Below are positions 17,368-46,345 of a stretch of DNA of 64,000 nucleotides, piece after piece. Origin of the DNA: Candidatus Delongbacteria bacterium (GTDB lineage Bacteria; CAIWAD01). Below the pieces are notes generated by a model. The model saw only the letters and a list, made by a program, of their open reading frames with translations, had not been told where the DNA came from and ran no database searches. The stretch spans positions 22,891-86,890 of the forward strand of contig JBAYTZ010000014.1 in the NCBI GenBank assembly GCA_041675285.1, written 5' to 3'. Each line of letters starts with the position of its first letter. Position 1 is the stretch's first letter. A program made the position numbers and the translations under genes.

Positions 17368-19418
17368 GCGCGCCCATCCTGGTGGACAGCCTGATTCGGA
17401 TCCCACTGCGAGACCTTTCCCCACGCGAGCGGGAGATCCTGGAGAGGGCCCTGTCCTACCCCAACCCCGCCTACCAACAGGCCAAGGCCCGGGGAGTGCA
17501 AACCCCGCGCGAGAAGGTGGACGGCGTCTGGCGCGAGATCCCCAAGCGCCTGGACGGCTTCCTGCTGGACGGGCAGGGCCGCTGGTGCATGCCCCGTGGT
17601 GCAGTAGCACTCCTGCGCAAGCACCTTCCAGCCTGGCCGGGCACAGAGGATCGGCGCAGCCGAGCACCCTTGGCGCCCAGCACACTGCCCGCCATGCGTA
17701 TCGAACTACGCCCCTACCAGCTGGCCGCCAAGGAAGCCATGGTCACCCGAACCCAGGGCGTGGTGGTGATCCCCGCCGGCGGCGGAAAGACCGTCACGGC
17801 CCTGGCCGCCTTGGTGGAGATCGGGCAGCGCACGCTGGTTCTGGTCCACACACTAGACCTGAAGGAGCAGTGGGAAGAGGAGCTGGAGGAGCACCTGGGC
17901 GTGGCGCCCGGGAAGATCGCGCCGGTGCAAGTGGCCACGGTGCAGACCCTGGCCAAGATGCATGCGGACGCTCTGACCCGGTACCTGACCGGTTTCGGCT
18001 GCCTGATTCTTGACGAAGGCCACCACGCCCCGGCCAGCACATTCGACCGCGTGGTGGCGTCCTGCCCGGCTACCTGGCGCCTGGCACTGACGGCCACTCC
18101 CGACCGGGAAGACGGCCTGACACCCAAGCTCCTGCACACCTTCGGCCCCATCCTGCACGAGACCCGCCAAGAGGACCTGCTGGCCGCCGGCTACCTGGTG
18201 CCAGCCGTCATCCACGAGGTCCACACGAGCTTCACCTTCCCCTACCAGGGCGCCGAGGACTACCAGGCCTTGGCCGAAGCATTGGCCCGGGACGAGGAGC
18301 GCAGGCGGCTGGTGCTGGACACGCTGGAGGCCCTCTACCAGGACGAGGAGCGCGTGATTCTGGTGCTATCCACCCGCGTGGAGGACCACCTGGTCCCGCT
18401 CTTCGAAGCGGCCAAGGCCCGAGGCATCCAGGGCGAGCTCCTGGCCGGGAAGGTGAAGAAGGACGCCCGGCGGCTCATCCGGCGTGCTGTGCGTGAAGGC
18501 CATGTGCGCGTGCTCTTCGCCTCGACTGTCGCAGACGAGGGCCTCAACATTCCCGAGCTGAACACCCTGCTCCTGACCTTCCCCGCCAAGGCCGAAGGCC
18601 GAGTTGAGCAGCGCGTGGGCCGGGTGATGCGCGCGTCGCCAGGCAAGACCAAGGGCGATGTCTACGACTTCATCGACAGCGCCGTGACCCATGTGGCCAC
18701 GGACGCCAAGCCCTTCCTGCGCCAGTATGCCAAGCGTCGGGCCGCCTACAAGAAGCTCCGGGCCAGCATCGTGAGGGCCGCTCCTGCGGCCCAGGCCGCC
18801 AACAGCGCCCTTGATGCCGGGCTGCTGCATCCCGTGCTCGCCCCGGCGATCCTGAAGCCCCACGCGGGCCGACGGCTGGTGGTGGGCATGGATCCTTCCT
18901 TCACCCACTTCGCTCTGGTAGCCGTGGACGTCGACCTCTGGTGGCCCGTGGCCATGACCACGCTCACCACCGCGCCCAGCGACAAGAAGCTGGGCATCCG
19001 CAAGGCCGACGATGACGGGCGTCGGTTGGAGATCCTGGCACTGGGCATCCGCGACTTCCTGGCCCGATTCCGCCCGGACCTACTCTGCTGCGAAACCCCG
19101 TCCTCCGGCGCCCAAAGCGCCGCGGCCTTGAAGGGCCTGGCCTATGCCAAGGCCCTCCTGGTGACGGCCAAGGTCTACCACGAAACGCCCACCATCTGGC
19201 TCCTGCCCGGGGACATCAAAGAGCGGGTGGGCGGCGGCCTCATTGCCACCAAGCAGCGAGTGGCCCAGTCCGCCCAGGCCTGCCGCGCCAGGGACGGCAG
19301 GCCGTGGTCGGAGGCCGGCTGGGACGCCACCAAGGACAAGAGCGAGCACCAGTTCGACGCCGCGGCGGCCATCCTGGCCAGCGTGAACGAGGACCTGTTC
19401 CAGGCCGTGATTCGATAG
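17364..19418 (+). CDS. SF2 helicase (DEAD/DEAH, type III res-subunit-like) fused to a C-terminal RuvC-like Holliday-junction resolvase domain
   Basis: VVVIPAGGGKTVTALAA (motif I), LILDEGHHAP (motif II), VLFASTVADEGLNIPELN and RVGRVMR (motifs V/VI). C-terminal 170 aa align to RuvC: VVGMDPSF (D), LLCCETPSS (E), DAAAAILAS (DAxDA). Confidence 0.7.
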   Translation: MSAPILVDSLIRIPLRDLSPREREILERALSYPNPAYQQAKARGVQTPREKVDGVWREIPKRLDGFLLDGQGRWCMPRGAVALLRKHLPAWPGTEDRRSRAPLAPSTLPAMRIELRPYQLAAKEAMVTRTQGVVVIPAGGGKTVTALAALVEIGQRTLVLVHTLDLKEQWEEELEEHLGVAPGKIAPVQVATVQTLAKMHADALTRYLTGFGCLILDEGHHAPASTFDRVVASCPATWRLALTATPDREDGLTPKLLHTFGPILHETRQEDLLAAGYLVPAVIHEVHTSFTFPYQGAEDYQALAEALARDEERRRLVLDTLEALYQDEERVILVLSTRVEDHLVPLFEAAKARGIQGELLAGKVKKDARRLIRRAVREGHVRVLFASTVADEGLNIPELNTLLLTFPAKAEGRVEQRVGRVMRASPGKTKGDVYDFIDSAVTHVATDAKPFLRQYAKRRAAYKKLRASIVRAAPAAQAANSALDAGLLHPVLAPAILKPHAGRRLVVGMDPSFTHFALVAVDVDLWWPVAMTTLTTAPSDKKLGIRKADDDGRRLEILALGIRDFLARFRPDLLCCETPSSGAQSAAALKGLAYAKALLVTAKVYHETPTIWLLPGDIKERVGGGLIATKQRVAQSAQACRARDGRPWSEAGWDATKDKSEHQFDAAAAILASVNEDLFQAVIR

Positions 19419-26677: not shown

Positions 26678-27108
26678 GCATGCACCGGCACCCAGCGCCC
26701 CTCAGCCCCACCGCCGCCGAGCACCTGGCCCTGATCGCCGACGCCCTGCACGTCCCACGCGACACGCCTGGGCATGAATTGGTCCAGCTGGTTTCCGTGC
26801 GCTGCAGGCCCATGGACAGGCAGCACCTGGACCGGCTGGTCACGGGAAGCCTCAAGAGCGCCATTCACGCCCATGGCCCAATCACCCACGAAGGCATCTG
26901 CAGCACGGCCAGACGCATGTCCGGCCAGATCCACGCAGTCCTTTGCGCCCAACACATGGGCCTGGACGACCCCGGGCAGGAGCTGCCAAGCGGGCCCGCA
27001 GCCATGCCGAACCCCCCAGAGGATGCGCCGCCCTACAGCCCGACTTGGTTGTCGGCAACGGCCAGCTCCATCAACACGCCACCCCACAACGAGAGGACCA
27101 CACCATGA
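26674..27108 (+). CDS. hypothetical protein
   Basis: ATGA-coupled to neighbours. Confidence 0.3.
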   Translation: MSMHRHPAPLSPTAAEHLALIADALHVPRDTPGHELVQLVSVRCRPMDRQHLDRLVTGSLKSAIHAHGPITHEGICSTARRMSGQIHAVLCAQHMGLDDPGQELPSGPAAMPNPPEDAPPYSPTWLSATASSINTPPHNERTTP

Positions 27109-28526
27109 GTGTTGAGCCCGTTTCCCAGGAGATGGCCACCCAGGCCGCCGGCGCCTGGCTGGCGCGCTTGCCCGAATCTCAAGCCGCCGGTCGGGCAGGC
27201 GTCACCGTCTTGGAGACGATGGATCTGGACGACGACCACCCAGGCTTCCACGTCGTTTCCAGCGGCATCACCACCGTCCTTGTCGCTGGCGACCTGCAGG
27301 CCCAACCGATCCTGGGCTGGGCGGATCATGGCGACCTGCAGGGCCTGGGCGAAGACATCCCGGAAGGCCTGCGCGAGCTTCTCGCCGCCTGGGGCCAGCA
27401 GATCCTCATCACCCGGCAGGCACCGCCGGAGCGCGCTGGCGGAGACAACCCCAACCGCGCCAAATGGGAGCACCTCCTGGACACAAGTGGGCGCGCCCAG
27501 GAGGAAGAGCAAGTCAAGGTGATCCCGCCGCTCCTGACCGCGCGCTGGGGCCAGGGCGCAGGCTGGAACGCCCACTGTCCCATCGATGCGGCCGGCCCCG
27601 CGGGGCGCGCCTATGCGGGCTGCGTGGCCACGGCCATGGGCCAGGTGCTGCATCACCATCACCACCCTTGGCGGGGACGAAACATCCAGTCCTACGAGCA
27701 CGACAAGTACGGCGAAATCAGCTTGGATTTTCTTGAGGAGACGCCGGCCTGGAAGGCGCTGGCCGACCAGGGTGCCACAGACGCTGCAGCGCGCCTGCTC
27801 TTCATGGCCGGCGTTGCCGCGCGCATGAACTACGGCTACCGGAGTTCCACGGCCAGCTCCAGCAACATCCCCGTCGCCTTGCGCGGCTTCCTGCGCTTCG
27901 CCGACACCACCCGTCTGGTGTGGCGGGCGAGCACGCCGCCGGAGATTTGGGAGGAGCTGATTCGGGAAGAGCTTGATGCCGGTCGCCCCATCATCCACCG
28001 CGGCCAAGGGGCCCAGGGTGGGCACGCCTTCAACCTGGACGGCTGGCGGTCGGACGGGTTCAAGCACGTGAACTTCGGCTGGAACGGGTCCTACAACGGC
28101 TGGTACACCTTGGATGACATCACCCCGGGCAACTGGAGCTTCACCAGCACGCAGGGCATGGTGGTGGGCATCCAGCCGCGCGAGGAGGAGCTGCTTGCCC
28201 CACCCGATGGTGAGCATGGCGTGCCGTCCGGCGGCATCACGCTGCGCTGGCGCCCGCAGCCAGGCATGGCGCGCGTGGAGTTGGATGTCTCCACCAACGC
28301 CCAGTTCACACCTGTCATCCGCCGGGCCGTACTCCCGGGCGGCATCACCAAACACTTTCTGACCGGCCTTGCGCCAAGCGCGCGCCACTTCTGGCGTCTC
28401 ACCTGGGTAGACAAGGTGGGCAACCGCCGCACCACGCAGGCGTGCAGTTTCGTCACCGGATCCCAGCCTACCACCGGCAGACCCGGTCAGCACTCCACAA
28501 CCATCAAGCCGGAGATCCTGCCATGA
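27105..28526 (+). CDS. peptidase C10 (streptopain/SpeB-like cysteine protease) with a propeptide and a C-terminal beta-rich (Ig/FN3-like) domain
   Basis: Catalytic Cys block YAGCVATAMGQVLHHH (SpeB GCVATATAQIMKYH). His block GGHAFNLDGWRSDGFKHVNFGWNG (SpeB [24 protein letters not shown]). RBS GAGAGGA before ATG 27105. Confidence 0.85.
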   Translation: MSVEPVSQEMATQAAGAWLARLPESQAAGRAGVTVLETMDLDDDHPGFHVVSSGITTVLVAGDLQAQPILGWADHGDLQGLGEDIPEGLRELLAAWGQQILITRQAPPERAGGDNPNRAKWEHLLDTSGRAQEEEQVKVIPPLLTARWGQGAGWNAHCPIDAAGPAGRAYAGCVATAMGQVLHHHHHPWRGRNIQSYEHDKYGEISLDFLEETPAWKALADQGATDAAARLLFMAGVAARMNYGYRSSTASSSNIPVALRGFLRFADTTRLVWRASTPPEIWEELIREELDAGRPIIHRGQGAQGGHAFNLDGWRSDGFKHVNFGWNGSYNGWYTLDDITPGNWSFTSTQGMVVGIQPREEELLAPPDGEHGVPSGGITLRWRPQPGMARVELDVSTNAQFTPVIRRAVLPGGITKHFLTGLAPSARHFWRLTWVDKVGNRRTTQACSFVTGSQPTTGRPGQHSTTIKPEILP

Positions 28527-30272: not shown

Positions 30273-30739
30273 GCGACACCAAGGCCCAGATGGCCAGGCT
30301 CAACGAGCGCATGGACAAGGCTGCCGAGTTCATGCGCGAGTTCAAGATTGAAGTCCTGGAACGCATTGAGCGCCTGGAACAGCGCGTCACAACGATCGAA
30401 CAGGCCCTGGGCGACCACCTTCGCGAGCACCAAGCCCGGGACGCGGCCAGCCCGCCGCCCAGGCCGCGGGCGCCGCGCGTCGTGCGCACGCCTGGCGGGA
30501 AGATCCGGGATCCCCTACTGGCAGCACTCAGCGCGCGGAAGGCGGACATCGGGCTCAACACCAGGCAGTTGGCCGGGCTGCTGGGCTACCCCCGGAACAC
30601 AGTTTCGAATTGGCTGAATCGAGTCAATGCGCCGACTCACCCGGGTGACCGCGCGCGCATCCACGAGTGGGTCAGCCTGGCAGAAAACGCGCCGGCGCGT
30701 TTGATCCGCGAGTGGCGAGAGGAGACAGACCGTGGATGA
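30269..30739 (+). CDS. hypothetical coiled-coil protein with a C-terminal HTH-like segment
   Basis: RQLAGLLGYPRNTVSNWLNR. ATGA coupling. Confidence 0.4.
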   Translation: MSDTKAQMARLNERMDKAAEFMREFKIEVLERIERLEQRVTTIEQALGDHLREHQARDAASPPPRPRAPRVVRTPGGKIRDPLLAALSARKADIGLNTRQLAGLLGYPRNTVSNWLNRVNAPTHPGDRARIHEWVSLAENAPARLIREWREETDRG

Positions 30740-31276
30740 ACCATGGACCCGAATTCTGGACGTGCCCGATCGCAAACCCGGGCAGTCGGGCAGAAATGGA
30801 GATTCCGTGATACAAACTGACAGGAGTATTTTGCCCGACTGCCCGAGTTTGCCTTCGGGCAGTTCGAATACAGGCAACCAACGTGTAGCTTTGAAAAAGC
30901 CCGAAGTCCTGCCCAAAGTACATCCCATGGGGGTGTCACCCCCCCCTGAGAAATCAAAAAACCTACCCGCGGGACTCCGCCCGCACGAACTCAGTTTTTT
31001 TCTCCTTTTAAGAAGTAAATGCCAGTGCGGGCAGAGTCCCGCGGGAAGTCGCTTTTTCGTCTTACAGACCCAAGGTGACACCCCTGGGAAAACAGGTTTG
31101 GGCGGTCTTTGGTCTAACACCTCAGGGTGGGAGATTCGTCACTCCCAAGGCGAACGCCGCAATTCCGCCCTAACCGCCGGTCTTCCTCCTGTCCCCCCAT
31201 GCCGCCGCCGCGCGGCCGCAGGCGCGCCCCACCACGCCGCGAACGCCATCAGCCGAACCCACGGAAGGATCCTCCC
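30740..31276. promoter_or_regulatory. 0.5-kb structured non-coding region: several hairpins including a 21-bp-stem hairpin (30966-30986 / 31025-31045, 38-nt loop with T7 run) flanked by inverted GGGGTGTCACCCC / GGTGACACCCC motifs
   Basis: Inverted repeats read directly from the sequence. No credible ORF. Lies between the regulatory/replication genes and the nuclease gene. Confidence 0.5.
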
Positions 31277-32665
31277 ATGACGACGCCACACGCGGCGCCT
31301 CTGACGCCCTGCTGCCCTAACCTGCCCCTCCTGGACCCCAAGCTCCCCGATGGCTTCCAGGTCCACAACGAGCACTGGTCCTTCTCCCGGCTGGACACCT
31401 ACGCCAGGTGCCCCCTCGCCTACAAGGCCAGGTACCTCGACCCCCAGATCTACGGCGCCGACTACGTCAAGCCCTTGCCAGACCCCAGTAGCCCGGCCGT
31501 CCTCGGCACCCTCTGCCACCGGACGCTGGAACTCGCCGGACTGACTCTCAAGCAAGCACGCCACATGGGCAGGCTCTTCCGCCAACAGAAGCTCATCCTC
31601 GACTGCCTCCACCAGGCCTTCCAAGAGAAGCCCGAAAAAGGCGACGTCATCCACACCGGCCAGGTCCTGGCCGATGCCCAGGCCATCCTTGTTGAGTACC
31701 TGAAGAACGGCGACTTCTACGCCGACCAGATCCTCGGCCTGGAGTGGCCCTTTGACTTCGTCATCGAAGACCCCCTGGGAGACATCCGCATCATCGGCTT
31801 CATCGACCGCCTGGAAATGACGCCCGAAGGCGTAGTGCGCCTCAAGGATTACAAGACCAACCGCATGCTCTACACCAAGGACGAGCTCAGGCAGTCCCTC
31901 CAGGCCTCCATCTACGAGCTGGCCGTCCGCGACAGCGAAGCCCTGGCCGTCACACCCGACACGCCCGTCGACTTCGAGTTCGTCCTCTTGCGCCATGGCC
32001 TGTCCCAGCGAACCACGCGCTCGGAGAGCGACCTGCAGCTGGCCGTCCACCAGATCACCTGCCTCGTCCACCGCTGCGAAGGGTCGCGCACCTTTCCCGC
32101 TCAGCTGAACAAATACTGCGCCTACTGCGACCACAAGGTCCAGTGCCCCTTTTGGCGGGAAGTGGTCGCACGCGGCCTGCCCCAGGCCCACGTCGGCGCC
32201 AGCGATCTGTCCGCCATCGCCGTCGAATACGAACGCATGACCGACGCCGCCAAGGTCCTCTACGCCCGGAAGGAGGAGATGGCCGACCTCATGAAGATCC
32301 ACCTCATCGGAAGCGAGCAGATCGAGACGCCCACACACCTCTTCCGCACCAGCGCCAACAATGAGACCACCTTCAGCGATCCCTTCCGCGTCGCCAAGCT
32401 CCTCGCCCAGGTCTACCACCGGCCCGTCAGTCAGGTCCTGCGACGCATCGGCCGCATCTCCAAGACTGAGTTCGACGCCGTCATGAAAGACGCCGAGCAG
32501 CGCGTGACCGCCACGGCCCTTGCCGAACTGAAGACGGAGCTGGAACCGCTCATCGAGACCATGCCCAACCCCAAACTCCAGGCCTACAAGCGCCCCGTGG
32601 AGGCGGAAGGGCAGCCGGCCAAACGGGTGAAGCGGCCCCAGGTGAAGCGCAGGCTGAAGGTTTGA
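31277..32665 (+). CDS. PD-(D/E)xK nuclease, Cas4/RecB-family, with C-terminal Fe-S cysteine cluster
   Basis: HWSFSRLDTYARCPLAYKARYLD (N-terminal Cys), IIGFIDRLE...VRLKDYKT (D...ExK), CAYCDHKVQCPF (three C-terminal Cys). RBS GGAAGGA. Confidence 0.7.
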   Translation: MTTPHAAPLTPCCPNLPLLDPKLPDGFQVHNEHWSFSRLDTYARCPLAYKARYLDPQIYGADYVKPLPDPSSPAVLGTLCHRTLELAGLTLKQARHMGRLFRQQKLILDCLHQAFQEKPEKGDVIHTGQVLADAQAILVEYLKNGDFYADQILGLEWPFDFVIEDPLGDIRIIGFIDRLEMTPEGVVRLKDYKTNRMLYTKDELRQSLQASIYELAVRDSEALAVTPDTPVDFEFVLLRHGLSQRTTRSESDLQLAVHQITCLVHRCEGSRTFPAQLNKYCAYCDHKVQCPFWREVVARGLPQAHVGASDLSAIAVEYERMTDAAKVLYARKEEMADLMKIHLIGSEQIETPTHLFRTSANNETTFSDPFRVAKLLAQVYHRPVSQVLRRIGRISKTEFDAVMKDAEQRVTATALAELKTELEPLIETMPNPKLQAYKRPVEAEGQPAKRVKRPQVKRRLKV

Positions 32666-32848
32666 ACGCGGTCTGAGGGTACTGACAATTGAACCTGACA
32701 AGACCTCAAGTTGATGTCAGATCAAGAAAATTGAGCGGAAAATGAAGCTAGAAACGGTTGGGGATACGCAGCGTGAGCCCGCCGGCCCTGGATGCCCCGG
32801 CCGGCCTGTCTGGAGCTGGGGCAGCTTGACTTCAACGCGGAGGCCAGC

Positions 32849-33562: not shown

Positions 33563-33883
33563 AAACCGCGAAAAAACGTCCAGGATCATGCCGCCCCGCC
33601 TTGGGGCGGCATTTGTGTGTCAAAGGGATCGCCCACCAGGTGCGTGCGAAAATGTCCGAGAATGGCTGTTCCCGGACGTTGGCGCGGGCATAGAGTGCGT
33701 ACATCACCTGCCGGCAGCCTGGCAAACGGGTGGGCCGGGGGGTGGTCTGGCGCAAAGCGGCAGGCCCCGCCGGGGCATCTTGGCTGTAAGGGGTGCTTTT
33801 GCGCACGCGTAGCTGGCCTATATGCAGAAGCTCCAGTGCTATACTCTTCCACCAATCTTGTTGCCTATTCAAGCAGGAAAGCT

Positions 33884-36800
33884 ATGAGCGACTCCACATC
33901 AGGGCGAAGCCTTTTCATTGTTGACAACAGCGTCTCCAACTGGACTGGAATCCGATATCTAGATGAATGGGCCGGCATCGCCAAATCCTTCGACGTGGCG
34001 ACCGGCTACTTCGAGATCGGCGCCCTTTTGGCCCTGGATGGCAAGTGGCAAGGATTGGACAAGCTGCGCATCCTCATGGGGGCGGAAACCACTCAACGCA
34101 CGCGCCAGGCGCTGCGCGAGGCGGTCACTTCGCGAGCGACGAATCGGCTGGACAACAGCCTGGAGGAGGAGAAGGATGCCAACCCTTTCCTCCGCGGCGT
34201 GCCGGCGATTCTCGATGCCCTGCGGCGCGGCCAGATTGATGTCCGGGTCTACGACAAGGACAAGTTCCACGCCAAGGCCTACATCACACACGCCAAACTG
34301 GAAGTCGTCGGTTCCCAGGCCCTGGTTGGCTCCAGCAACTTCACTCGACCAGGCCTGACCAAGAACATCGAGTTGAACATCCAGGTCCAGAGCGCGCGGG
34401 AAGTGGCGCAGCTCCAGGAGTGGTTTGAAATCCACTGGAATGACGCCCGTGAGGTGACAGACGCGGTCATTCGCATCATCGAGCGCCAAACGCAGGAGTA
34501 TGCCCCATTCGAGATCTATGCCAAGGCCCTTCAGGAGTATTTCCGCGGACATGAGCTGACGGACACTGAGTGGGAAGATGGGCAGTCGCGCATGTTTCCC
34601 GTGTTGGATCGTTACCAGAAAGAGGCCTATTGGAAGCTGCAAAAGATTGCCCATGCCCATGGTGGGGCCTTCCTCTGCGACGGGGTGGGTTTGGGTAAGA
34701 CTTTCGTGGGACTGATGCTCATTGAGCGCTTGATCCTGCACGAGGGCAAGCGGGTGGTGCTCTTCGCGCCCAAGACCGCCAAGGAAGGGGTCTGGGAGCG
34801 GGACCTGAAGCGCTATCTGCCTCACATCGGCGGCATTAGCGGCGGCGCGGATTTCAGCAATCTGGCCGTCTTCAGTCACTCGGACTTGGGACGCAAAGGA
34901 GATTTCCCCGAGCGCTTCCGGCGAATGACGGAGTTGGCCGATGTGGTGATCGTGGATGAGGCGCATCACTTTCGCAACCCCGGCACCCCAGGGGACGCGG
35001 ATGCAGAAGTGGAGCCCTCCCGCTACTTCCAGCTCTTCAACCTCCTCGACAACACGCAACGATCCAAGACGCTCTACATGCTGACGGCCACGCCCATCAA
35101 CAACAGCTTGCATGATTTCCGGCACATGGTGGAGCTGTTCTCGCGTCGCCAGGAGGATTGGTTCAAGTCCCTGGGCATCCACAACCTGCGTGCCCACGTC
35201 AACAAGCTGGAGCGGGACCTGCGCCAGCGCATGGCGAGTGCAGCTGTGGCAAAAACCCAGTCGACGGAAGTCGCCCTGGGCGAACTGACGACGGAGCTGC
35301 AGGAAGTCCTCGCCGCGGATCCGCTGATCGGTGAGTTGGTGGTCCAGCGCAGTCGCTCCTATGTGCGGGAGAGCCAGTTGCGTGAGCATGGCAAGGCGGC
35401 GGTCTTCCCCGTGCGCAGGCCCCCCCAGGTGGCGGACTACAGCATCCGCAAGAGTTACGGACGCTTGCTGGAGATCTTTGAGCTGGCCTTCCGCAAGGAA
35501 CACCCGCTGTTTTCGCTGCCCATGTACTACCCCTTGGCCTTTCCTCGGGTTGAGGATGGCAGCGTGGATCCTTTCGAGGAGAGCCGACAGAAGGAGGTGG
35601 TGGGGCTCATCCGCACCCAGTTCCTGAAGCGCTTCGAAAGCTCGGTGGCGTCCTTTGAGATTTCCTGCGACCGGCTGTTGAAGAAGCTGCTCGCTTTCCT
35701 GGAGATCCATTGCGAGACGGAGCGGGAGCGCAGGTTGCTGGAGCGCTGCCTCCTGCAGCACAAAGACGTGCTGGGCTTTGTCCATTCCCGGCAGAGCGAG
35801 ATCTGGGAGAGCGAGGCCGGTGAAGAGGGCGAGAGCGACTTGATACCACCCGAGTTCCTGGCCCGGGTGACCAAGCTGGATCGCGCCGAGTACCGCGTGG
35901 AAGACATGATCCAGGAGACCCTGCAAGATGTGAACCAGATCGCGGCCTTCTTGGAGGAAGCCAGGCATTTCCAGCCCAAGCATGACGACAAGCTGCGTCG
36001 GCTGGTGCGCCTGCTGAAGTCCAAGGAACTGGCGGGACAGAAGGTGCTGGTGTTCACCGAGTACGCCGACACGGCCCGCTACCTGAAGCGCCAATTGCGT
36101 GCGGAGGGCATTGAAGGCGTCGGTGAGGTGGACGGCGGCACGCCGGGCAGCCGCGCCCAGGTGATTGCCCGGTTCGCGCCCTATTACAACGGACACAGCT
36201 CTGCTGAGATGGAGGCGGAAGGAGGCGAGATCAGGGTGTTGATTTCCACCGACGTCCTGTCGGAAGGCCTCAACCTCCAGGACGCGTCACGGATGATCAA
36301 CTACGACATCCACTGGAACCCCGTGCGCTTGATGCAGCGCATCGGCCGTGTGGACCGCCGCTTGAATCCGGAAGTGGAGGCGCGCCTTCTGGCGGACCAT
36401 CCCGAGCTGAAGGGCTCGCGCGGCATCGTCCACTACTGGAATTTCCTCCCGCCCGATGAGCTGAACCAGTTGCTTAGTCTCTACACCATCGTCACGCGCA
36501 AGACTCTGCTGATCTCGCGGACTCTGGGCATTGAAGGCGGCAAGCTGCTTCGGCCGGAGGACATGTACGACGACCTCAAGGTCCTCAATGCCCATGACGC
36601 GGCCTACGAGGGCTCGCGCACCGTGGTCGAGGACTTGCACTTGGAATACCAGGCCTTGCTGGCTGCGATGCCGGAGCTGGAGGCGAAGTTGAAAGCGCTA
36701 CCGGGGGCTGTGTTCAGTGGCCGGGAGGCAGTGACAGCAGGTCTACGCGGCGTGTTTTTCTGCTACGCCCTGCCTGCTCTGGACCTGGAGACCGGCGAGT

Positions 36801-37054
36801 TCAGCCTGACGGCCGGCCCCACCCGCTGGTACTTGGCCGACCTGGAGCAAAACCGCATCCTGGAAGAGCCGGGCGAGATCGTCGAGCATGTGCGCAGCAC
36901 GCCGGAGACGGCGCGGCGCTGCCAAATGGATGAGGTCCTGCTAAAGGACTGGCGCGGGCGCGTCGAGAAGCACATCAAGAACACCTACCTCAAGCGCGTG
37001 GACGCTCCCATCGGCGTCAAGCCGGCTCTGCGTTGCTGGATGGAGGTCAATTGA
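33884..37054 (+). CDS. PLD-nuclease (HKD) domain fused to an SNF2-family helicase (SNF2_N + Helicase_C)
   Basis: HKD motif FHAKAYITHAKLEVVGSQALVGSSNF. Helicase motifs LCDGVGLGKTF (I), VIVDEAHHFRN (II), LISTDVLSEGLNLQD (V), QRIGRVDRR (VI). AGGAAAG RBS. Confidence 0.85.
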   Translation: MSDSTSGRSLFIVDNSVSNWTGIRYLDEWAGIAKSFDVATGYFEIGALLALDGKWQGLDKLRILMGAETTQRTRQALREAVTSRATNRLDNSLEEEKDANPFLRGVPAILDALRRGQIDVRVYDKDKFHAKAYITHAKLEVVGSQALVGSSNFTRPGLTKNIELNIQVQSAREVAQLQEWFEIHWNDAREVTDAVIRIIERQTQEYAPFEIYAKALQEYFRGHELTDTEWEDGQSRMFPVLDRYQKEAYWKLQKIAHAHGGAFLCDGVGLGKTFVGLMLIERLILHEGKRVVLFAPKTAKEGVWERDLKRYLPHIGGISGGADFSNLAVFSHSDLGRKGDFPERFRRMTELADVVIVDEAHHFRNPGTPGDADAEVEPSRYFQLFNLLDNTQRSKTLYMLTATPINNSLHDFRHMVELFSRRQEDWFKSLGIHNLRAHVNKLERDLRQRMASAAVAKTQSTEVALGELTTELQEVLAADPLIGELVVQRSRSYVRESQLREHGKAAVFPVRRPPQVADYSIRKSYGRLLEIFELAFRKEHPLFSLPMYYPLAFPRVEDGSVDPFEESRQKEVVGLIRTQFLKRFESSVASFEISCDRLLKKLLAFLEIHCETERERRLLERCLLQHKDVLGFVHSRQSEIWESEAGEEGESDLIPPEFLARVTKLDRAEYRVEDMIQETLQDVNQIAAFLEEARHFQPKHDDKLRRLVRLLKSKELAGQKVLVFTEYADTARYLKRQLRAEGIEGVGEVDGGTPGSRAQVIARFAPYYNGHSSAEMEAEGGEIRVLISTDVLSEGLNLQDASRMINYDIHWNPVRLMQRIGRVDRRLNPEVEARLLADHPELKGSRGIVHYWNFLPPDELNQLLSLYTIVTRKTLLISRTLGIEGGKLLRPEDMYDDLKVLNAHDAAYEGSRTVVEDLHLEYQALLAAMPELEAKLKALPGAVFSGREAVTAGLRGVFFCYALPALDLETGEFSLTAGPTRWYLADLEQNRILEEPGEIVEHVRSTPETARRCQMDEVLLKDWRGRVEKHIKNTYLKRVDAPIGVKPALRCWMEVN

Positions 37055-37923
37055 TGCCCCGCAAGAAGCAGGATGCCGATCCGCCGACCCTGGGTCGCGG
37101 AGGAGAGATCGTCCTGTTCCAGGAAGGTGGCGTGGGGCGTCTGGAAGTCAGGCTGCAGGGGGAGACCCTCTGGCTGAGCCTGCAGCAGCTGGCCGATCTC
37201 TATCAGCGCGACAAGTCGGTCATTTCCCGCCATCTGCGAAGCATCCTCGCCACGGGGGAGTTGGAGCGTGAGGTAGTTGTTGCAAAAAACGCAACAACTG
37301 CCGCCGACGGCAAGACCTATCAGGTGGACTTCTACAACCTGGACATGATCATCTCCGTCGGTTACCGCGTTCACTCCTTGCGCGGCACCCAATTCCGCAT
37401 CTGGGCCACCCGCACCCTGAAGGACACTTTGGTGCGCGGCTACACGTTGAACGAGAGTCGCCTGCAAGCCCAGGTGGAACGCCTGGAGGGCCTGCTGGCC
37501 GCCGTCCAATTGGTGGGGCGCGTCGCCACGGAGCGCTCCCTGAGCAGCGGCGAGGCCAAGGGCCTGCTCAAGGTCGTGGGCGACTTCTCGCTGGCGCTGG
37601 ACCTGCTGGACCAGTATGACCACGGCCGCCTCTCTCTACGAAGCACGACGGCCAGCGCGGGCCGCGTCCTGGAAGAAACCCGCAGACGCAGGCCCGCGCC
37701 CCGCTGCGCCCTGGTGCTGGGCCGGGTGGACGCCAAGCGGACGCCGGACCGCGCCGCGCCGGTTCTTGCTGGCCGGGGCCTTTGGGCTGCCCGTCCTAAC
37801 CGTCCGCCAAGACGCCCAGCTGGCCACGGCTTTGGGGGTTGGATATGTCCCGTCCGCATCCAGCCGGGGGGCGCGGAAGACCTGGAAGCCGTGGCAAAGT
37901 GGATTGATGGAGGAAAACCGTGA
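37054..37923 (+). CDS. RhuM-family (virulence protein RhuM-like) protein; C-terminal ~90 aa atypical and possibly degenerate
   Basis: LFQEGGVGRLEVRLQGETLWLSLQQLADLYQRDKSVISRHLRSI...DFYNLDMIISVGYRVHSLRGTQFRIWATRTLKD is the RhuM signature. Distal part is R/P/G-rich. Start overlaps the upstream stop. Confidence 0.65.
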   Translation: MPRKKQDADPPTLGRGGEIVLFQEGGVGRLEVRLQGETLWLSLQQLADLYQRDKSVISRHLRSILATGELEREVVVAKNATTAADGKTYQVDFYNLDMIISVGYRVHSLRGTQFRIWATRTLKDTLVRGYTLNESRLQAQVERLEGLLAAVQLVGRVATERSLSSGEAKGLLKVVGDFSLALDLLDQYDHGRLSLRSTTASAGRVLEETRRRRPAPRCALVLGRVDAKRTPDRAAPVLAGRGLWAARPNRPPRRPAGHGFGGWICPVRIQPGGAEDLEAVAKWIDGGKP

Positions 37924-39203
37924 TGGTCGACAAGGGCTTTCCAGCCGGTTACGAGCCGCAGGGGAGCACTGAGGCTGCCGAGTGGTACCGCCTAGCCGCT
38001 GAGCAAGGGAATACAATGGCCCAGCGCAATCTGGGGGTCATGTACTACAACGGCGAGGGCGTGCTGCAAGACTACACAGAGGCTGTCAAGTGGTTTCGAC
38101 TAGCGGCTGAGCAGGGGTACGCGCCGGCTCAGTATAACCTGGGGGTTGCGTGCGCCAAGGGCCTGGGCGTGCCGCAGGACTACGTTGAGGCCGTCAAGTG
38201 GTACCGCCTGGCTGCTGAACATGGGAACGCAGGAGCCCAGTTAAATCTGGGATTCTTGTACCACAGCGGCGAGGGCGTGCCGCAGAACGGCGCTGAAGCC
38301 GTCAAGTGGTACCGCCTTGCGGCGGAGCAAGGCAATGTAAGTGCCCAGAACAACCTGGGAGTCATGTACAAGAGCGGCCAGGGTGTGCCGCAGGACTACA
38401 TTGAGGCCGTTAAGTGGTACCGCCTTGCGGCGGAGCAAGGACATGTAAGTGCCCAGAACAACCTGGGGGACATGTACAGTGGCGGCCAAGGCGTGCCGCA
38501 GGACTACGCAGAGGCCGCCAAGTGGTCCCGCCTTGCCGCGGAGCAGGGGTGCGCGCCGGCACAGTACAATCTAGGGGTTGCATGCGCCAAAGGCAGGGGC
38601 GTGCCGCATAACGACGCAGAGGCAGTCATGTGGTACCGCCTAGCCGCTGCGCAGGGGTACGCACCGGCTCAGTACAACATGGGAGTCATGTACGACGACG
38701 GCCGAGGCGTGCCGCAGGACTACGTTGAGGCTGCCAAATGGTACCGCCTAGCCGCTGAGCAGGGCCATGTAAGTGCCCAGAACAACTTGGGGGGCATATA
38801 CGGCGGCGGACAAGGCGTGCCGCAGGATGACGCAGAGGCTGCCAAGTGGTTCCGCCTAGCAGCGGAGCAAGGCCATGTAGGTTCCCAGTACAACCTGGGG
38901 GTTGCGTGCCACCTCGGCCAAGGCGTGCCTCAGAACTACGCGGAAGCAGCCAAGTGGTACCGCCTAGCCGCTGAGCATGGGTACGCACCGGCTCAGTACA
39001 ACCTGGGTGTCATGTACAACGACGGCCGAGGCGTGCCGCAGGACTATATCATGGCTCACCTGTGGTGGAACCTTGCTGCCACCAGCGGGGATGAGGACGC
39101 GGTGAGGGGTAGAGGCACTGTGGCTGGCAAGATGACCCCTGCCCAAATCGCAGAGGCGCAACGTCTCGCCCGCGAGTGGAAGCCCACACCGGAGAAGCCA
39201 TGA
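37923..39203 (+). CDS. Sel1-repeat (SLR/TPR-like) protein, ~11 tandem 36-aa repeats
   Basis: Repeating AEAVKWYRLAAEQG.A.AQ.NLG.MY..G.GVPQDY units. GGAGG RBS. Stop overlaps the methyltransferase start. Confidence 0.85.
   Translation: MVDKGFPAGYEPQGSTEAAEWYRLAAEQGNTMAQRNLGVMYYNGEGVLQDYTEAVKWFRLAAEQGYAPAQYNLGVACAKGLGVPQDYVEAVKWYRLAAEHGNAGAQLNLGFLYHSGEGVPQNGAEAVKWYRLAAEQGNVSAQNNLGVMYKSGQGVPQDYIEAVKWYRLAAEQGHVSAQNNLGDMYSGGQGVPQDYAEAAKWSRLAAEQGCAPAQYNLGVACAKGRGVPHNDAEAVMWYRLAAAQGYAPAQYNMGVMYDDGRGVPQDYVEAAKWYRLAAEQGHVSAQNNLGGIYGGGQGVPQDDAEAAKWFRLAAEQGHVGSQYNLGVACHLGQGVPQNYAEAAKWYRLAAEHGYAPAQYNLGVMYNDGRGVPQDYIMAHLWWNLAATSGDEDAVRGRGTVAGKMTPAQIAEAQRLAREWKPTPEKP
37960..39110 (+). repeat. DNA-level tandem repeat (period 108 bp) encoding the Sel1 repeats
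   Basis: Recurring ...gtggtaccgcct.gc.gc.gagca.gg... units visible in the sequence. Confidence 0.6.
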
Positions 39204-42200
39204 GCAAGACCCAAGACCGGAACTGGGAGCGCCTGCGCTCCATCAAGACGATCGAGGAGCTGCTAGCCTATTTGAGGGAGGAGCTTGACTGGCCGCTCGA
39301 AGGCGCGGACGTCGAGGACGTCGCCTTCGAATACACACCCGAGGAGCTGGGCCTGGAGCCCGCCCTGGCGGTTAAGATCGATTCCATTCACCGTCTGCGT
39401 CCGCTGAGCACGCACCAACCCTGGGGCATTTTCTTCGTCGACTTCGAGCCCAAGAATCTGCCCGTCACGGCCCTGCGCCGCATCCTGGGCCGCGTGGTCT
39501 TGAAGAAGCGCGCCAAGGGCAGCGCGCAGGCCTGGCACGCAGACGACCTGCTCTTCATCTCCACCTACGGGCAAGGGCCCAGCCGCCAGATCTGCCTGGC
39601 GCACTTCTCCGCCAGCGAGGGAGCGCGCGACCTACCCACCCTCAAGGTGCTGGGCTGGGACGAGCAGGACACGGCACTGCACCTTGCCCACGCCGCCAAC
39701 ACCCTGGTCAAGCACCTCACGTGGCCGGAAAACGAGAACGACCTGGAGATCTGGCGCAAGACTTGGAGCGCAGCCTTCACGCTGGGGCATCGGGAAGTCA
39801 TCTCCACGGCCAAGGATCTCTCCATTCGGCTGGCGGCGCTGGCGAGGGCGATTCGCCTGCGCATCACCACGGCGCTGGCGATCGAGAGCGAGAGCGGCCC
39901 GCTCACGCGTCTGATGCATGCCTTCCGCGAGGCCCTGGTCCACGACCTGACGGTGGAGAGCTTCGCCGACATGTACGCCCAGACCATCGCCTACGGCCTG
40001 CTCTCGGCGCGCATCACTGATCCACACAAGAAGACTGCTGACGATTTCGCAGGTCACTTGCGCACCAACCCCTTCCTGCGGGAGCTGATGGAGACCTTCC
40101 TGAAGGTGGGTGGACGGCAAGGGAAAGCGGGCGGGTCAGGCATCGACTTCGATGAGCTGGGCGTCTTCGATGTGGTGGAGCTGCTGGACGACGCCAACAT
40201 GGAGGCCGTCGTCCGCGACTTCGGCGACAGGAACCCACAGGAAGACCCAGTCATCCATTTCTATGAGGAGTTTCTTCGGCATTACGATCCAGGTGAGAAG
40301 AAAAAGCGTGGCGTCTTCTACACGCCGCGCCCGGTGGTAAGCTACATCGTGCGCTCGGTGGACGAGCTGCTGCGAACGGAGTTCGGCCTGGAGGACGGGC
40401 TGGCCGACACCACCACGTGGGGCGAGATGCTACAGCGACAGCCCGGCCTGCAGCTGCCCAACCTCTCAGAGGACTCCGACCACCCGCGCCTGCTGGACCC
40501 GCAGCATCCCTTCGTGCAGATCCTCGACCCGGCCACGGGCACGGGCACCTTCCTCGTTGAGGTCATCGAGATCATCCACCGCACGATGACCACCAAGTGG
40601 ACGGCCCACGGTCACAGCGAGAAGCAGATCGAGGCGCTCTGGAACGCCTATGTGCCGCGCCACCTGCTGCCGCGCCTGCACGGCTACGAGCTGCTCATGG
40701 CGCCCTACGCCATCGCCCATCTCAAGATCGGCCTCAAGCTCCATGAGACGGGCTACCACTTCGACAGCGAGGAGCGGGCACGCATCTACCTGACCAACGC
40801 CCTGGAGCCGGCCAACGACAAGCAGATCACGACGGCCATGCTGCCGGCGCTGGCGCACGAAGCTCAAGCGGTCAGCATGATTAAACGTCACCAAAGGTTC
40901 TCCGTCATCATTGGTAATCCTCCATATGCAAGAGATTCCGCAAACCGCAGTGATTATGCGGAGAATCTCGTAGCAATCTACAAGGAGGACGTGAGGAATG
41001 AACGAAACATCCAACCTCTGTCTGATGACTATGTGAAATTCATCGGGATGGCTCAAGCCGTAATGTCATCATGCGGTACAGGAATTGTTGGATTCATCAC
41101 AAATCACAGCTTTATTAAGGGAGTAATTCATCGAGGGCTAAGAAGACGTGTTTGTCAGTTCTTCCAGAGGGCATACTTTTTGGACCTTCACGGCAACTCG
41201 AACATCAACGAGCAGCCGCCAAAGGACATTGAGGACGAAAACGTCTTTGACATTCGACAAGGTGTTGCAGTCTCATTGCTGACCAGAGTTTCCGCTGTTG
41301 TTGGTTATAAAGACCAAACTAAAGTTTCTGAACTCTGGGGAAAGCGGACAGAGAAATATGAATATTTACTGAAGCAAAGACATGGTGATAATGATTGGAT
41401 TCTCGTTGAACCAAAACCGCCGGAATACGAACTCATTGTAGCCGGTGATGGATCTACTCAAGTTGAATTTGATTCGTTATTCCACCTGCATGATTGGTTT
41501 CCAACTTCAGCGACTGGATTTATCACGCACCGTGACGAATTGGTGATCGATTATGATCAGTCAAACCTTATGCGAAGGATTCACGATTTAGTGGATAAAA
41601 ATATTTCTGATGAAGAGGTTATCAAGAAATATTCCTTAGAGAGCAATTCGGACTGGAATCCAATTGATGCTAGAAAACAACTTCGGGCAGTAAAGGAGTT
41701 ACAAGAAAGAGTTGTTCGTTGCACTTATCGCCCGTTTGATAGTAGATGGTGCTGGTGGGGACGAGAACTAATGGATCGCCCGCGTCAGGAGTTATTTGAG
41801 TTTTTCGTAAAACCTAACTTGACGCTGTTATGTAAACGACAGAACAAAAGGACTCCTTTCTCTTACGCATTTGTTGCCTCTGAAATAACAGAAAGTTGCA
41901 CATTTGAGAGTGCACATGCGAATAATGTTGCGTTTCCAATCTTCGTCCACACAAATGACCTGTTGTTTGGGAAGAACATCATTCATCCAAACATTGGTGA
42001 TGAAATTGTAAGTAGAGTTCGAAGACGGCTTAATTTGAATTTAGTTTCGCTTGCTATGGGTGATTTGAAGGTGACCTGCGGGCCGCGCGATTTATTGCAC
42101 TACGTATATGCAACCATTCATGCACCTAGCTACCGGACGAGATATGAGGCGTGCCTGATTAAAAGCTTCCCGCGCATTCCGTTGACATATAATCTGGACC

Positions 42201-42715
42201 TGTTCCGCGACCTCACACTTTTTGGCGGCAGGCTCGTCGCTTTGCATCTGCTGGAGTCGCCCACCCTCGACCACTTCATCACCACCTACGCCGGCCCGCC
42301 CCAACCAGAAGTCGGGCGCGTGGGCTGGTCGGATGGCACAGTCTGGTTGGATGCCGCGGCCACCAAGAAAGGGCAGCCCGCCACGCCCGGCAGAATGGGC
42401 TTCAAGGGCGTGCCCGAGGAAGTCTGGAACTTCCACATCGGCGGCTACCAGGTCTGCGAGAAGTGGCTGAAGGACCGCAAGGGGCGGCGGCTGTCGGACG
42501 AGGACATCGCCCATTACCAGAAGATTGTCGTGGCGCTGAAGGAGACGATCCGCCTGATGGGCGAGATCGACGAGGTCATTGAGAAGCATGGCGGGTGGCC
42601 GGGGGCGTTTGCCGCAGGACCGGCGGCGGGTGCGGCGGACTATCCGACCTGCGAGACGGGGCAACGCAAGGCGGCGGAAACGGGCGACCTGTTTGGGCAA
42701 AATGCGGAGTCTTGA
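39200..42715 (+). CDS. type IIG restriction-modification / PglX-like gamma-class N6-adenine DNA methyltransferase (1171 aa), GC-mosaic
   Basis: Motif X/I GVFYTPRPVVSYIV and LDPATGTGTFLVEV, motif IV VIIGNPPYARDS, long C-terminal TRD-like region. GC drops from ~65% to ~40% between ~40860 and ~42200 within the ORF. Confidence 0.85.
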   Translation: MSKTQDRNWERLRSIKTIEELLAYLREELDWPLEGADVEDVAFEYTPEELGLEPALAVKIDSIHRLRPLSTHQPWGIFFVDFEPKNLPVTALRRILGRVVLKKRAKGSAQAWHADDLLFISTYGQGPSRQICLAHFSASEGARDLPTLKVLGWDEQDTALHLAHAANTLVKHLTWPENENDLEIWRKTWSAAFTLGHREVISTAKDLSIRLAALARAIRLRITTALAIESESGPLTRLMHAFREALVHDLTVESFADMYAQTIAYGLLSARITDPHKKTADDFAGHLRTNPFLRELMETFLKVGGRQGKAGGSGIDFDELGVFDVVELLDDANMEAVVRDFGDRNPQEDPVIHFYEEFLRHYDPGEKKKRGVFYTPRPVVSYIVRSVDELLRTEFGLEDGLADTTTWGEMLQRQPGLQLPNLSEDSDHPRLLDPQHPFVQILDPATGTGTFLVEVIEIIHRTMTTKWTAHGHSEKQIEALWNAYVPRHLLPRLHGYELLMAPYAIAHLKIGLKLHETGYHFDSEERARIYLTNALEPANDKQITTAMLPALAHEAQAVSMIKRHQRFSVIIGNPPYARDSANRSDYAENLVAIYKEDVRNERNIQPLSDDYVKFIGMAQAVMSSCGTGIVGFITNHSFIKGVIHRGLRRRVCQFFQRAYFLDLHGNSNINEQPPKDIEDENVFDIRQGVAVSLLTRVSAVVGYKDQTKVSELWGKRTEKYEYLLKQRHGDNDWILVEPKPPEYELIVAGDGSTQVEFDSLFHLHDWFPTSATGFITHRDELVIDYDQSNLMRRIHDLVDKNISDEEVIKKYSLESNSDWNPIDARKQLRAVKELQERVVRCTYRPFDSRWCWWGRELMDRPRQELFEFFVKPNLTLLCKRQNKRTPFSYAFVASEITESCTFESAHANNVAFPIFVHTNDLLFGKNIIHPNIGDEIVSRVRRRLNLNLVSLAMGDLKVTCGPRDLLHYVYATIHAPSYRTRYEACLIKSFPRIPLTYNLDLFRDLTLFGGRLVALHLLESPTLDHFITTYAGPPQPEVGRVGWSDGTVWLDAAATKKGQPATPGRMGFKGVPEEVWNFHIGGYQVCEKWLKDRKGRRLSDEDIAHYQKIVVALKETIRLMGEIDEVIEKHGGWPGAFAAGPAAGAADYPTCETGQRKAAETGDLFGQNAES

Positions 42716-42750
42716 TCGCAGCTAGGTGGGCGCCAGGCCGAGAGGTGAAC

Positions 42751-43455: not shown

Positions 43456-43456
43456 G

Positions 43457-46036: not shown

Positions 46037-46048
46037 TGGTCTAACTCC

Positions 46049-46094
46049 CGTTTTGATGGGTATAATTACGCAGAGACACTTTTCATAAGCAAGT
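46049..46094 (-). promoter_or_regulatory. conserved ~45-bp promoter/operator repeat, copy 1 (plus-strand CGTTTTGATGGGTATAATTACGCAGAGACACTTTTCATAAGCAAGT)
   Basis: Three near-identical copies (46049, 47097, 48011), each immediately 5' of a minus-strand ORF. Minus-strand reading gives TTGACT/TTGCTT -N17-18- TAGTTA/TAATTA. Confidence 0.5.
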
Positions 46095-46345
46095 TAAAGG
46101 TGAGAAATATTTTGACTTATTTAAATAGCTGAGACAGTCAAGAGCTGACGGGATGCTGGTAAAGCAGAAGCGCTCCATCCGGGGCGCTTTCAGCAATTGG
46201 TTCTGTCACAGCTTTAGGGCGATGCGCCATGGGCTGCTTAGAACGACCGTTTTTATAGCGGCGATAGCTTGGCATGGGTCGATGCCTGCCGACACTTTTT
46301 AGCGACGGCGGCTTCCACGTTGTTCATGGGGTGGTACTTGGGAGT

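Follow-up and report, generated by a model that had tools for sequence, protein, structure and literature searches.

Replication origins that are composed of iterons and an AT-rich tract are already known, and so are origins that lie inside genes. In herpes simplex virus, oriL and oriS consist of long inverted-repeat arms, which contain sequences resembling initiator sites and surround an AT-rich centre that melts. Long imperfect hairpins of single-stranded DNA are used by the G4-type ssi sites and by Frpo of F, where primase or RNA polymerase is recruited on one defined strand. For the staphylococcal pathogenicity islands (SaPIs), the origins have been located directly 3' of rep, where an AT-rich centre is bordered on either side by two or more iterons, which point in opposite directions (PMC9371898). 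The origin of phage lambda, again iterons with an AT-rich tract, is situated inside the translated O gene (PMC7466680). Here, we describe a segment of 0.55 kb (30740-31276) in a window of 64,000 nucleotides, the whole stretch of DNA that was analysed, from contig JBAYTZ010000014.1 of the Candidatus Delongbacteria assembly GCA_041675285.1. The window represents a temperate phage, with genes for terminase, portal, head protein and integrase and with related contigs in IMG/VR. Within it, the segment lies between the gene of a helix-turn-helix (HTH) protein and the gene of a Cas4-like nuclease, and it is crossed by an open reading frame (ORF), called ORF-X in the following. From comparison of the sequences, the segment is read as a cis-acting DNA site, most likely the phage origin or a closely related initiation site, lying under a translated filler ORF; we put the probability of this reading at roughly 45%.

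An earlier note on this DNA had described three types of structure in the segment, and all three were located. They belong to two domains (Table 1). In domain A, a pair of arms of 33 nt (30763-30795 / 30829-30861) is 88% complementary, and the small hairpin ACTGCCCGA / TCGGGCAGT (30838-30846 / 30855-30863) has a loop of 8 nt and not of 6 nt, as first described. The inverted pair GGGGTGTCACC (30930-30940) / GGTGACACCCC (31074-31084) is complementary over its 11 nt to 100% with a spacing of 133 nt, and the long stem enclosing the 38-nt T-rich loop has arms of 24 nt, which are 92% complementary. The latter two features had been reported as separate ones. Both are present, and together with a third outer stem they build up a single nested hairpin of ~215 nt, here termed domain B.

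Folding of 30740-31276 as RNA, with dinucleotide shuffles as controls (n=100), resulted in z = -8.1 for the plus strand and -8.3 for the minus strand, and 0 of 100 shuffles were equally stable. Using DNA parameters, z is -7.4 for domain A and -9.1 for domain B, and the domains of the homologues range from -0.7 to -11, 23 of 24 being at or below -2.2. The G+C content of the region is 53-57% compared to ~65% in its flanks.

Homologues were gathered via the nuclease, which yielded eleven further loci, twelve with the window; two of them are viral contigs from IMG/VR. The identity of their nucleases to that of the window is 95% for L100, 92% for L001 and L099, 85% for L098, 84% for L010 (the same contig as L089), about 78-79% for L090 and L104, 72% for L002, about 71-73% for L003 and L011, and 71% for L097. 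In all homologues, a gap of 537-635 bp is present between the HTH gene and the nuclease gene, in which most assemblies call no gene. The segments align in part, with a mean column identity of 61%, and their architecture is alike in all. The placement given originally, after the primase/helicase module and before the nuclease gene, holds insofar as a structured cis element ends the replication module ahead of the Cas4-like nuclease; the gene directly upstream, however, encodes the XRE-type HTH protein and not a primase or helicase.

The layout of domain A is constant and its repeat sequences are variable in all homologues. In the window, the repeat YCGGGCAG occurs with 4 exact copies in 85 bp compared to 21 in the other 64 kb, and about 4 degenerate copies are found besides within 30762-30916. 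The corresponding unit is TGGGCCA in L010 and L100, TGGGTCAG/TGAGCCA in L002, GGGTCCAG in L003 and L011, GGTCGCGACC in L097, CCGGCCA in L090, GGCGACT in L104 and TGCATGCA in L001 and L098. The upstream proteins of all loci are homologous and consist of one long helix followed by the HTH domain, and a given recognition helix is accompanied by a given repeat: PRNTVSNWLNRVN by CGGGCAG, PRKTVSNWLNRDR by TGGGCCA, VRTLTNWLNRRK by GGGTCCAG, ANTISHWLNRHW by GGTCGCGACC and YGTVSGWCRHVT by CCGGCCA. In locus L100, the window-like parts are the nuclease (95% amino acid identity), domain B and, in the HTH protein, the N-terminal two thirds; the C-terminus of the HTH protein (KTVSNWLNRDR...) and domain A are L010-like. 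To judge from this mosaic, L100 arose by recombination, with a joint exchange of the HTH C-terminus and domain A. This joint swap suggests that the specificity of the HTH protein and the repeats travel as one module, and we infer that the HTH protein is the binder of the domain A repeats.

This arrangement resembles the SaPI origins, and also P4 ori/alpha and PLE ori, since the site is found directly 3' of the gene of a specific DNA-binding protein, the binder being a predicted one here. As in the SaPIs, at least two short repeats are placed in opposite directions on each side of a less G+C-rich centre, and repeat sequence and protein specificity change jointly among relatives (PMC9371898). 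Furthermore, the distant relative L006 possesses a replicase fused to an HTH domain (an AEP-primase/AAA/HTH protein), and a non-coding region comes immediately after it. There, CGGTGACTCT occurs 5 times, one inverted CGGTGACTCT pair flanks TATATATATTATAA, and the nuclease module is next in line. Several other distant loci have a protein of ~1000-1090 amino acids in the upstream position, as assigned by size and place only. Comparing the HTH protein of the window with the C-terminal HTH of the L006 replicase by BLASTP, no homology was detectable. In contrast to the SaPI origins, the putative binder is a small stand-alone coiled coil with an XRE-type HTH and not the winged-helix domain of a helicase. 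Also, the element of the phage, whose origin activity is putative, adds a quasi-palindrome of ~215 bp and lies in a translated frame.

The centre of domain A holds an apex motif, which is present in forward orientation in the window (12/14 positions), in L100 and L002 (14/14) and in L010 (13/14), and in reversed orientation in L098 (14/14), L001 (12/14) and L011 (11/14). That the motif can face either way, at the tip of an inverted repeat, points to recognition on double-stranded DNA and to a flipping of the loop mediated by the hairpin; an RNA motif does not fit this.

In parS of P1, arms of specific repeats surround a site for a host factor, and the inverted arms of domain A around their orientation-free core look similar. 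The segment could also be a nucleoprotein site of another kind, which we consider rather improbable: a partition or centromere-like site, a site for packaging in which the HTH protein would serve as small terminase, or a hot-spot or point of entry for the adjoining exonuclease/recombination module. The element abuts the Cas4-like nuclease in 12/12 loci, HTH_23-type domains are known from small terminases, and beside the large terminase gene none for a small terminase was recognised. Nevertheless, no ParA-like ATPase is present among the scanned genes, the phage has an integrase, and the repeat region of the distant relatives directly follows the replicase. Nothing ties the region to packaging: it is 18 kb distant from the large terminase gene, and within the HTH protein the coiled coil precedes the HTH, which is the reverse of the order in typical small terminases. 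Of the functions proposed in the earlier note (origin, primase loading site or packaging signal), packaging is not supported. The anatomy of an origin is recognisable in the lineage-specific repeats, which co-vary with the adjoining DNA-binding protein, and in the AT-rich centres between inverted repeats.

In domain B, the sequences of stem P2 are unrelated between lineages while the pairing is retained (GGGGTGTCACC in the window, GCGCTCTCTCTCT in L003, GGGGTGGTG in L097, GAGACAAAGGGG in L001 and L098), and the AT-rich centre is kept in sequence (TTTTTnTnTTTTTAAGAA) and orientation. A covariance model of domain B, which was built from six close sequences, matched 11 of the twelve loci exactly once each and had no match in more distant relatives or elsewhere; for the remaining locus, L104, inspection by eye revealed a diverged domain B at the corresponding position. 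In the model-fitted alignment (plus-strand rows), 87% of the cells are paired compared to 75% after shuffling (maximum 78.5%), and 34/55 pairs are changed on both sides compared to a shuffle mean of 15.8 (maximum 24), but these numbers lean towards the structure because the alignment was fitted to it. If the partner is slid by 1-3 columns, 32-50% are paired. An independent MAFFT/RNAalifold alignment revealed double changes in 15/26 pairs of P3. The stems are therefore retained by compensatory changes in the homologues, which bears out the comparison for covariation that had been suggested at first.

Two candidates for such a palindrome were rejected. A miniature inverted-repeat transposable element (MITE) or other mobile palindromic repeat does not fit to one copy per locus (11 loci), a constant syntenic position and a divergence in step with the flanks. 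Against a protelomerase target (telRL) or hairpin telomere speak the imperfect palindrome with its asymmetric centre of 38 bp and the lack of a protelomerase domain among the scanned genes.

The P3 arms hold repeat-like sequences, GCGGGCAG in the window and GCGGTCGCGA in L097, which is the point of likeness to oriL and oriS of herpes simplex virus, and it is suggested that the HTH protein may bind to the P3 arms as well. Unlike in the herpesviral origins, the palindrome is imperfect, with three stems and internal loops between them, and host and proteins are unrelated. With the G4-type ssi sites and Frpo of F, the element shares long imperfect hairpins, and the phage encodes a DnaG-like primase of its own; in contrast to these sites, no strand bias is seen, and the likeness is one of structure, not of sequence.

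To distinguish an RNA from a DNA element, a strand signature was sought, in which G:U is tolerated and A:C is not. In arm-against-arm alignments, G:T and A:C mismatches number 21 vs 16 in domain A and 33 vs 51 in domain B; in the fitted alignment of the plus strand, they number 36 vs 22. The fold energies of plus and minus strand gave no consistent preference. A scan of the window against Rfam 15 yielded 0 matches at the gathering score; at permissive settings only sub-threshold matches of the miRNA-precursor type appeared, on both strands, as expected of any long hairpin. The region is thus not covered by an Rfam family of non-coding RNA, which the earlier note had named as a finding that would speak against its proposal, and a scan for tRNA and tmRNA found none. 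The lack of a clear RNA strand together with the flipped apex motif tilts the assessment towards an element that acts at the DNA level.

This also bears on the alternative, regarded as unlikely, that the segment regulates transcription or RNA. Here, the HTH protein would be a repressor or activator and the domain A repeats its operators. Domain B in the mRNA might, with as little likelihood, be a site for processing by RNase III, an attenuator or terminator-like hairpin, or a stability element. By a similarly doubtful extension, expression of the nuclease/recombination genes would be set relative to the upstream genes, and translation of ORF-X would modulate hairpin formation. Such a role is in line with the fold of the HTH protein, which is like that of cI and controller proteins, with its Pfam match to Phage_CI_repr and with the position of the repeats just 3' of the regulator gene, where autoregulatory operators are frequently placed. 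The last repeat precedes the conserved TAGCTTTG block by 22 nt, the AT-rich apex keeps its orientation among the loci, the consensus fold is slightly better on the plus strand, a small U/A-G apex stem included, and T-runs follow P3 on both strands. However, there is no promoter-like site in or near the region. The TAGCTTTG block was considered as a Bacteroidetes-type -7 box (TAnnTTTG) and rejected, since this motif is not enriched and, apart from one intragenic copy, otherwise absent from the G+C-rich part of the phage. Translation of the frame from end to end would melt the RNA hairpins, G:U is not in excess over A:C, the apex motif of domain A is present in both orientations, and Rfam is without a match. 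An intrinsic terminator consists of a short G+C-rich stem with a loop of 3-8 nt and a U-tract directly after it. The stem of 24 bp with its loop of 38 nt, where the T-run of the plus strand begins 4 nt past the stem, does not resemble this, and a terminator scan of the region detected only a sub-hairpin of 6 bp on the minus strand.

The visible promoters of the phage are sigma70-like, and a scan for sigma70-like promoters at 13-33 kb, the replication block on the plus strand, found no match. Since the phage encodes its own ECF-like sigma factor and the block of 20 kb has no promoter of the sigma70 consensus, it may use promoters of its own, which may escape recognition; this leaves some room for a regulatory role.

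The segment had been described as having no coding potential. This is incorrect in form, as ORF-X spans the region and is open in 12/12 loci, and correct in that constraint on the amino acids is absent. The start of ORF-X overlaps the stop codon of the HTH gene (GTGGATGA), its TGA stop overlaps the ATG of the nuclease gene (ATGA), and the frames of the homologues are coupled to their flanking genes likewise, by overlaps of ATGA, GTGA or TGATG. One frame of the plus strand is free of stops across the whole gap in each of the twelve loci, while the other two plus frames contain 1-9 stops. By chance, any open plus frame would be expected with a probability of 0.005-0.07 per locus (dinucleotide shuffles), and the chance that the observed pairwise substitutions create no in-frame stop is 0.006-0.08. 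In L098 (2357-4363), the frame continues without a stop and in frame into the nuclease gene, which results in a potential fusion of 673 amino acids.

The composition and the changes of ORF-X are not those of its neighbours. The G+C content at the three codon positions (GC1/2/3) is 0.62/0.57/0.58 and similarly flat in 10 homologues, while GC3 in the neighbouring genes is 0.8-0.9. Throughout the family, the differences per codon position of ORF-X are 0.53/0.54/0.57. For the pair of the window and L100, the values are 0.137/0.154/0.170, and the codons differ by 8 synonymous and 46 nonsynonymous changes, compared to 0.041/0.026/0.128 with 57 synonymous and 24 nonsynonymous changes in the nuclease and 0.077/0.11/0.206 in the HTH gene. 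For homologous nucleotides of P3 and the apex, the reading frame in the window is not that of L002, and indels in ORF-X are multiples of three between close pairs, but not between distant pairs. A six-frame comparison among the homologues exposed the open frame; the similarity it found extends over all six frames and is therefore uninformative on coding.

A genuine, fast-evolving disordered protein, for example one with an anti-defence or regulatory function, to which repeats and palindromes would be secondary or neutral, is considered very improbable. Its features are those of real phage genes, namely the open frame, the Shine-Dalgarno sequence and the overlaps of start and stop, to which the indels of the close pairs and the in-frame fusion in L098 can be added. 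Two pipelines called ORF-X as a gene, and these two calls are the only ones in a collection of 5.8 billion proteins. On the other hand, the low GC3, the equal change at all codon positions, the excess of nonsynonymous changes and the shift of homologous nucleotides between frames all argue against a protein. Neither Pfam nor PHROG gave a match to ORF-X, a sister clade has stops in all frames at this place, and a protein cannot explain the covariation of the stems.

A frame that is kept open, yet with flat GC3, equal change at the codon positions and frame drift, suggests that openness is selected and the product is not. ORF-X is therefore best read, from its pattern of change, as a translated filler with an unconstrained amino acid sequence. 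In form, it is also the conserved small ORF that the earlier note had listed as a possible objection, open in 12/12 loci and coupled to both neighbours. Since it lacks constraint at the protein level, ORF-X does not explain the structures away. More tentatively, the frame of ~180-210 codons may be kept open solely for the passage of ribosomes over a structured DNA element, with an irrelevant polypeptide. It is in the same tentative sense that translation would be coupled to the nuclease gene and the C-rich transcript shielded from Rho-type polarity. The ratio of nonsynonymous to synonymous change (dN/dS) is about 1, as would befit an irrelevant product. A comparison to lambda is of interest in this context, where iterons and an AT-rich tract likewise lie within a translated frame beside replication genes, and where the iterons can be exchanged together with the specificity of the initiator as one module (PMC7466680). 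In contrast, the lambda frame encodes the initiator, a real and conserved protein, whereas the overlapping frame here is a separate, unconstrained ORF and the presumed binder is encoded upstream.

For an origin, the following sequence of events can be proposed. The HTH protein would bind the domain A repeats, two copies per side in opposite orientation and the extra copies, around the less G+C-rich centre, in which the orientation-independent apex motif would be a possible site for a host factor. After unwinding of the DNA, the arms of domain B could pair as hairpin or cruciform, and the AT-rich centre of 38 bp would be the likely point of melting or priming for the phage helicases and the DnaG-like primase. 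As the element is placed inside a long, promoter-poor operon of the plus strand, the frame would be kept free of stops in this clade and coupled to its flanking genes. An untranslated stretch of 0.55 kb ending in a C-rich, G-poor tail (31150-31276), which itself ends in the Shine-Dalgarno sequence of the nuclease gene, GGAAGGA (31263-31269), would invite Rho-type polarity. Ribosomes would cross ORF-X and re-initiate at the nuclease gene, and polarity on the C-rich tail would be avoided.

Two properties looked for in iteron-type origins are present. The YCGGGCAG array is a cluster of short repeats specific to the element, with lineage-specific counterparts in all homologues, and 30987-31024 together with the low-GC centre of domain A provides the adjoining A+T-rich candidate unwinding region in a genome of 65% G+C. 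Several observations nevertheless weigh against an origin. In the AF2 model of the HTH protein (pLDDT 86.5), a helix of 60 residues is followed by a five-helix XRE / lambda-cI-like domain, and the top matches in Foldseek are cI and C-proteins, at weak E values of 0.04-0.2; as modelled, the HTH domain resembles transcription regulators rather than any known initiator, and none of the phage genes was recognised as belonging to an initiator family. L001 and L098 possess the common repeat TGCATGCA but differing recognition helices, which is a partial exception to the correspondence of helix and repeat. For P3 and apex, RNAalifold favours the plus strand slightly (-28.4 vs -23.5), and the one fixed orientation in which the AT-rich centre of domain B occurs would be compatible with an RNA, too. 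Template-switch repair can keep inverted repeats alike without selection for pairing. A cluster of DnaA boxes (TTATCCACA-like) is not present: there is a single site with 2 mismatches (30731-30739), and the window shows no enrichment of matches. Host DnaA boxes occur in many, but not all, iteron-type origins.

Finally, an analysis of the GC skew had been advised for the element. In the window and in six homologues, a V-shaped cumulative minimum is indeed reproducible, but its position coincides with the 3' end of the nuclease gene, which places it 1.2-1.4 kb rightward of the element. The most negative GC3 skew per gene is that of the nuclease gene and ORF-X, and the left module is C-rich at third positions. 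The minimum may therefore partly reflect the composition of modules, and it gives only loose support for an origin. At the minimum, an AT-rich gap of 126 bp (32666-32791) follows the nuclease gene, in which CTGACAA is present twice and TGTCAG once inverted, and gaps of 130-240 bp occur at the corresponding place in the homologues. This gap could be an alternative candidate for an origin or a promoter.

Table 1. Coordinates of the element, its flanking genes and further genes of the phage in the window.
Feature	Position	Strand	Remarks
HTH gene, 156 aa	30269-30739	+	~60-residue helix (coiled-coil-like) and C-terminal XRE / lambda-cI-like HTH
ORF-X, 182 codons	30732-31280	+	GTG start at 30732; AGGAG at 30720-30724, 7 nt before the start
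Domain A	30757-30870		inverted array of short repeats around a less G+C-rich centre
Repeat YCGGGCAG, two tandem copies	30778-30785, 30786-30793	+
Repeat, two copies in opposite orientation	30831-30846	-	TTGCCCGAC degenerate; CTGCCCGA exact, 30839-30846
Fifth repeat copy TCGGGCAG	30855-30862	+
Further degenerate repeat copies	30762-30770, 30908-30916
Apex motif CCGTGATACAAACT	30805-30818		family consensus CCGTGATACAAGTT; either orientation among phages
Conserved block (G)TAGCTTTG	30886-30893	+	between domains A and B; in 7 of the first 10 loci
Domain B	30899-31116		nested three-stem quasi-palindrome
P1	about 30902-30917 / 31097-31112
P2	30929-30940 / 31074-31084
P3	30963-30986 / 31025-31048
AT-rich 38-bp centre of domain B (TTTTTTTCTCCTTTTAAGAAGTAAAT)	30987-31024		candidate DNA unwinding element
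Conserved C-rich, G-poor tail	31150-31276	+	contains TAACCGCCGGTCTTCC and two copies of GCGAACGCC
Cas4-like PD-(D/E)XK (RecB-family) exonuclease gene	31277-32665	+	Pfam PDDEXK_1 1.5e-28; PHROG exonuclease
ECF-like sigma factor gene	13426-14124		Sigma70_r4_2, Sigma70_ECF
Superfamily-2 helicase (ResIII/Helicase_C) fused to RuvC-like Holliday-junction resolvase domain	17364-19418		PHROG 159
Tyrosine integrase	48751-49752	-
Large terminase	49709-51310
Portal	51320-52846
Mu-F-like head protein	52846-57285

The Pfam matches of the HTH protein are HTH_23 and Phage_CI_repr, and a protein (P0037) from a metagenome-assembled genome (MAG) of Candidatus Delongbacteria is 100% identical to it; the host of the phage is Candidatus Delongbacteria-like. 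The gene block on the plus strand spans 13.4 to 33.6 kb, and its first gene encodes the ECF-like sigma factor. It contains two helicases, a DnaG-like primase of 1002 amino acids, an SbcC-like ATPase, a C10 peptidase and an Rv2179c-like exonuclease. One helicase is fused to the RuvC-like domain, a fusion that is noteworthy given the cruciform-forming palindrome nearby. The peptidase (26943-28526) is a streptopain-like C10 cysteine peptidase with an N-terminal Spi-inhibitor-like domain, which is placed among the early phage genes and is also found in L002 and L102.

The block is closed by a strong terminator (33588-33612). On its 3' side lies a variable island of defence and cargo genes (33617-45072), which in the window encodes a PLD-SNF2 helicase, RhuM, a Sel1-repeat protein, a Type ISP-like restriction-modification enzyme (39176-42715) and an AAA_21 ATPase. 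Relatives (L001, L002, L003, L098, L100) carry other cargo at this spot, namely Abi, Vsr with a methylase and Eco29kI, DUF499 and SieB. Further to the right, three copies of an AT-rich module of ~70 bp (GGGCATAACTACGCAGAGACACTTTTC...AGTCAAGT...) are present at 46040-46130, 47095-47175 and 48015-48100, 5' of gene groups of the minus strand. On this strand, they resemble sigma70-type promoters (TTGACT, ~17 nt, TAGTTAT/TAATTAT) and are probably repeated promoters or operators of leftward genes for lysogeny or morons. Islands of low G+C content (41-50%) at 7000-13000, 41000-42000 and 58000-63000 are probably recently acquired DNA; the rest of the window has 62-75% G+C.

Cultured phages gave no similar DNA, and the only matches of the nuclease among them were Cas4-family exonucleases of Gordonia phages at ~24% identity. 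Scans of IMG/VR for exact patterns (apex motif; AT-rich centre) yielded chance matches and one known contig, and the covariance model revealed no new member among the IMG/VR loci with the apex motif. A sister clade (L004, L005 and L008; ~50% nuclease identity), which represents three related prophage copies of the nuclease module in one MAG (8_bin.8), possesses a plain AT-rich, repeat-rich non-coding region at the corresponding place, with stops in every frame. There, L005 and L008 have one upstream set of repeats in common, CCAACGCCCAG, with more than 8 copies, while L004 differs by TGGACAC/GTCCAT and GAGAGAGAG. A hairpin, GTCCCCGGCGAAGCCGGAC...GCGGGCGAAGCCCG, just 5' of the nuclease gene is common to the three.

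To our knowledge, nothing is known about the replication of phages of uncultured FCB-group/Delongbacteria hosts, and origins in metagenomic phage genomes are almost never annotated. Here, the combination of a three-stem quasi-palindrome with the layout of iterons and AT-rich centre would be new, and so would be a stand-alone XRE-type protein as apparent specificity factor and, above all, a frame that is conserved as open without constraint on its product. A recognisable signature, consisting of an HTH recognition helix with matching repeats, a quasi-palindrome with an AT-rich centre and a single copy that ends the replication module, would allow such sites to be found from the sequence alone.

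The open, unconstrained frame would mean that an ORF is conserved for the act of translation and not for its product, with consequences for the interpretation of "hypothetical proteins" and "intergenic regions" in densely packed viral genomes. If this is true, "translated spacer" ORFs would be a class that is missed by gene callers, passed over in annotation and marks hidden cis elements in gene-dense phages. The present element would also allow polarity and translational coupling over a DNA element to be tested cleanly.

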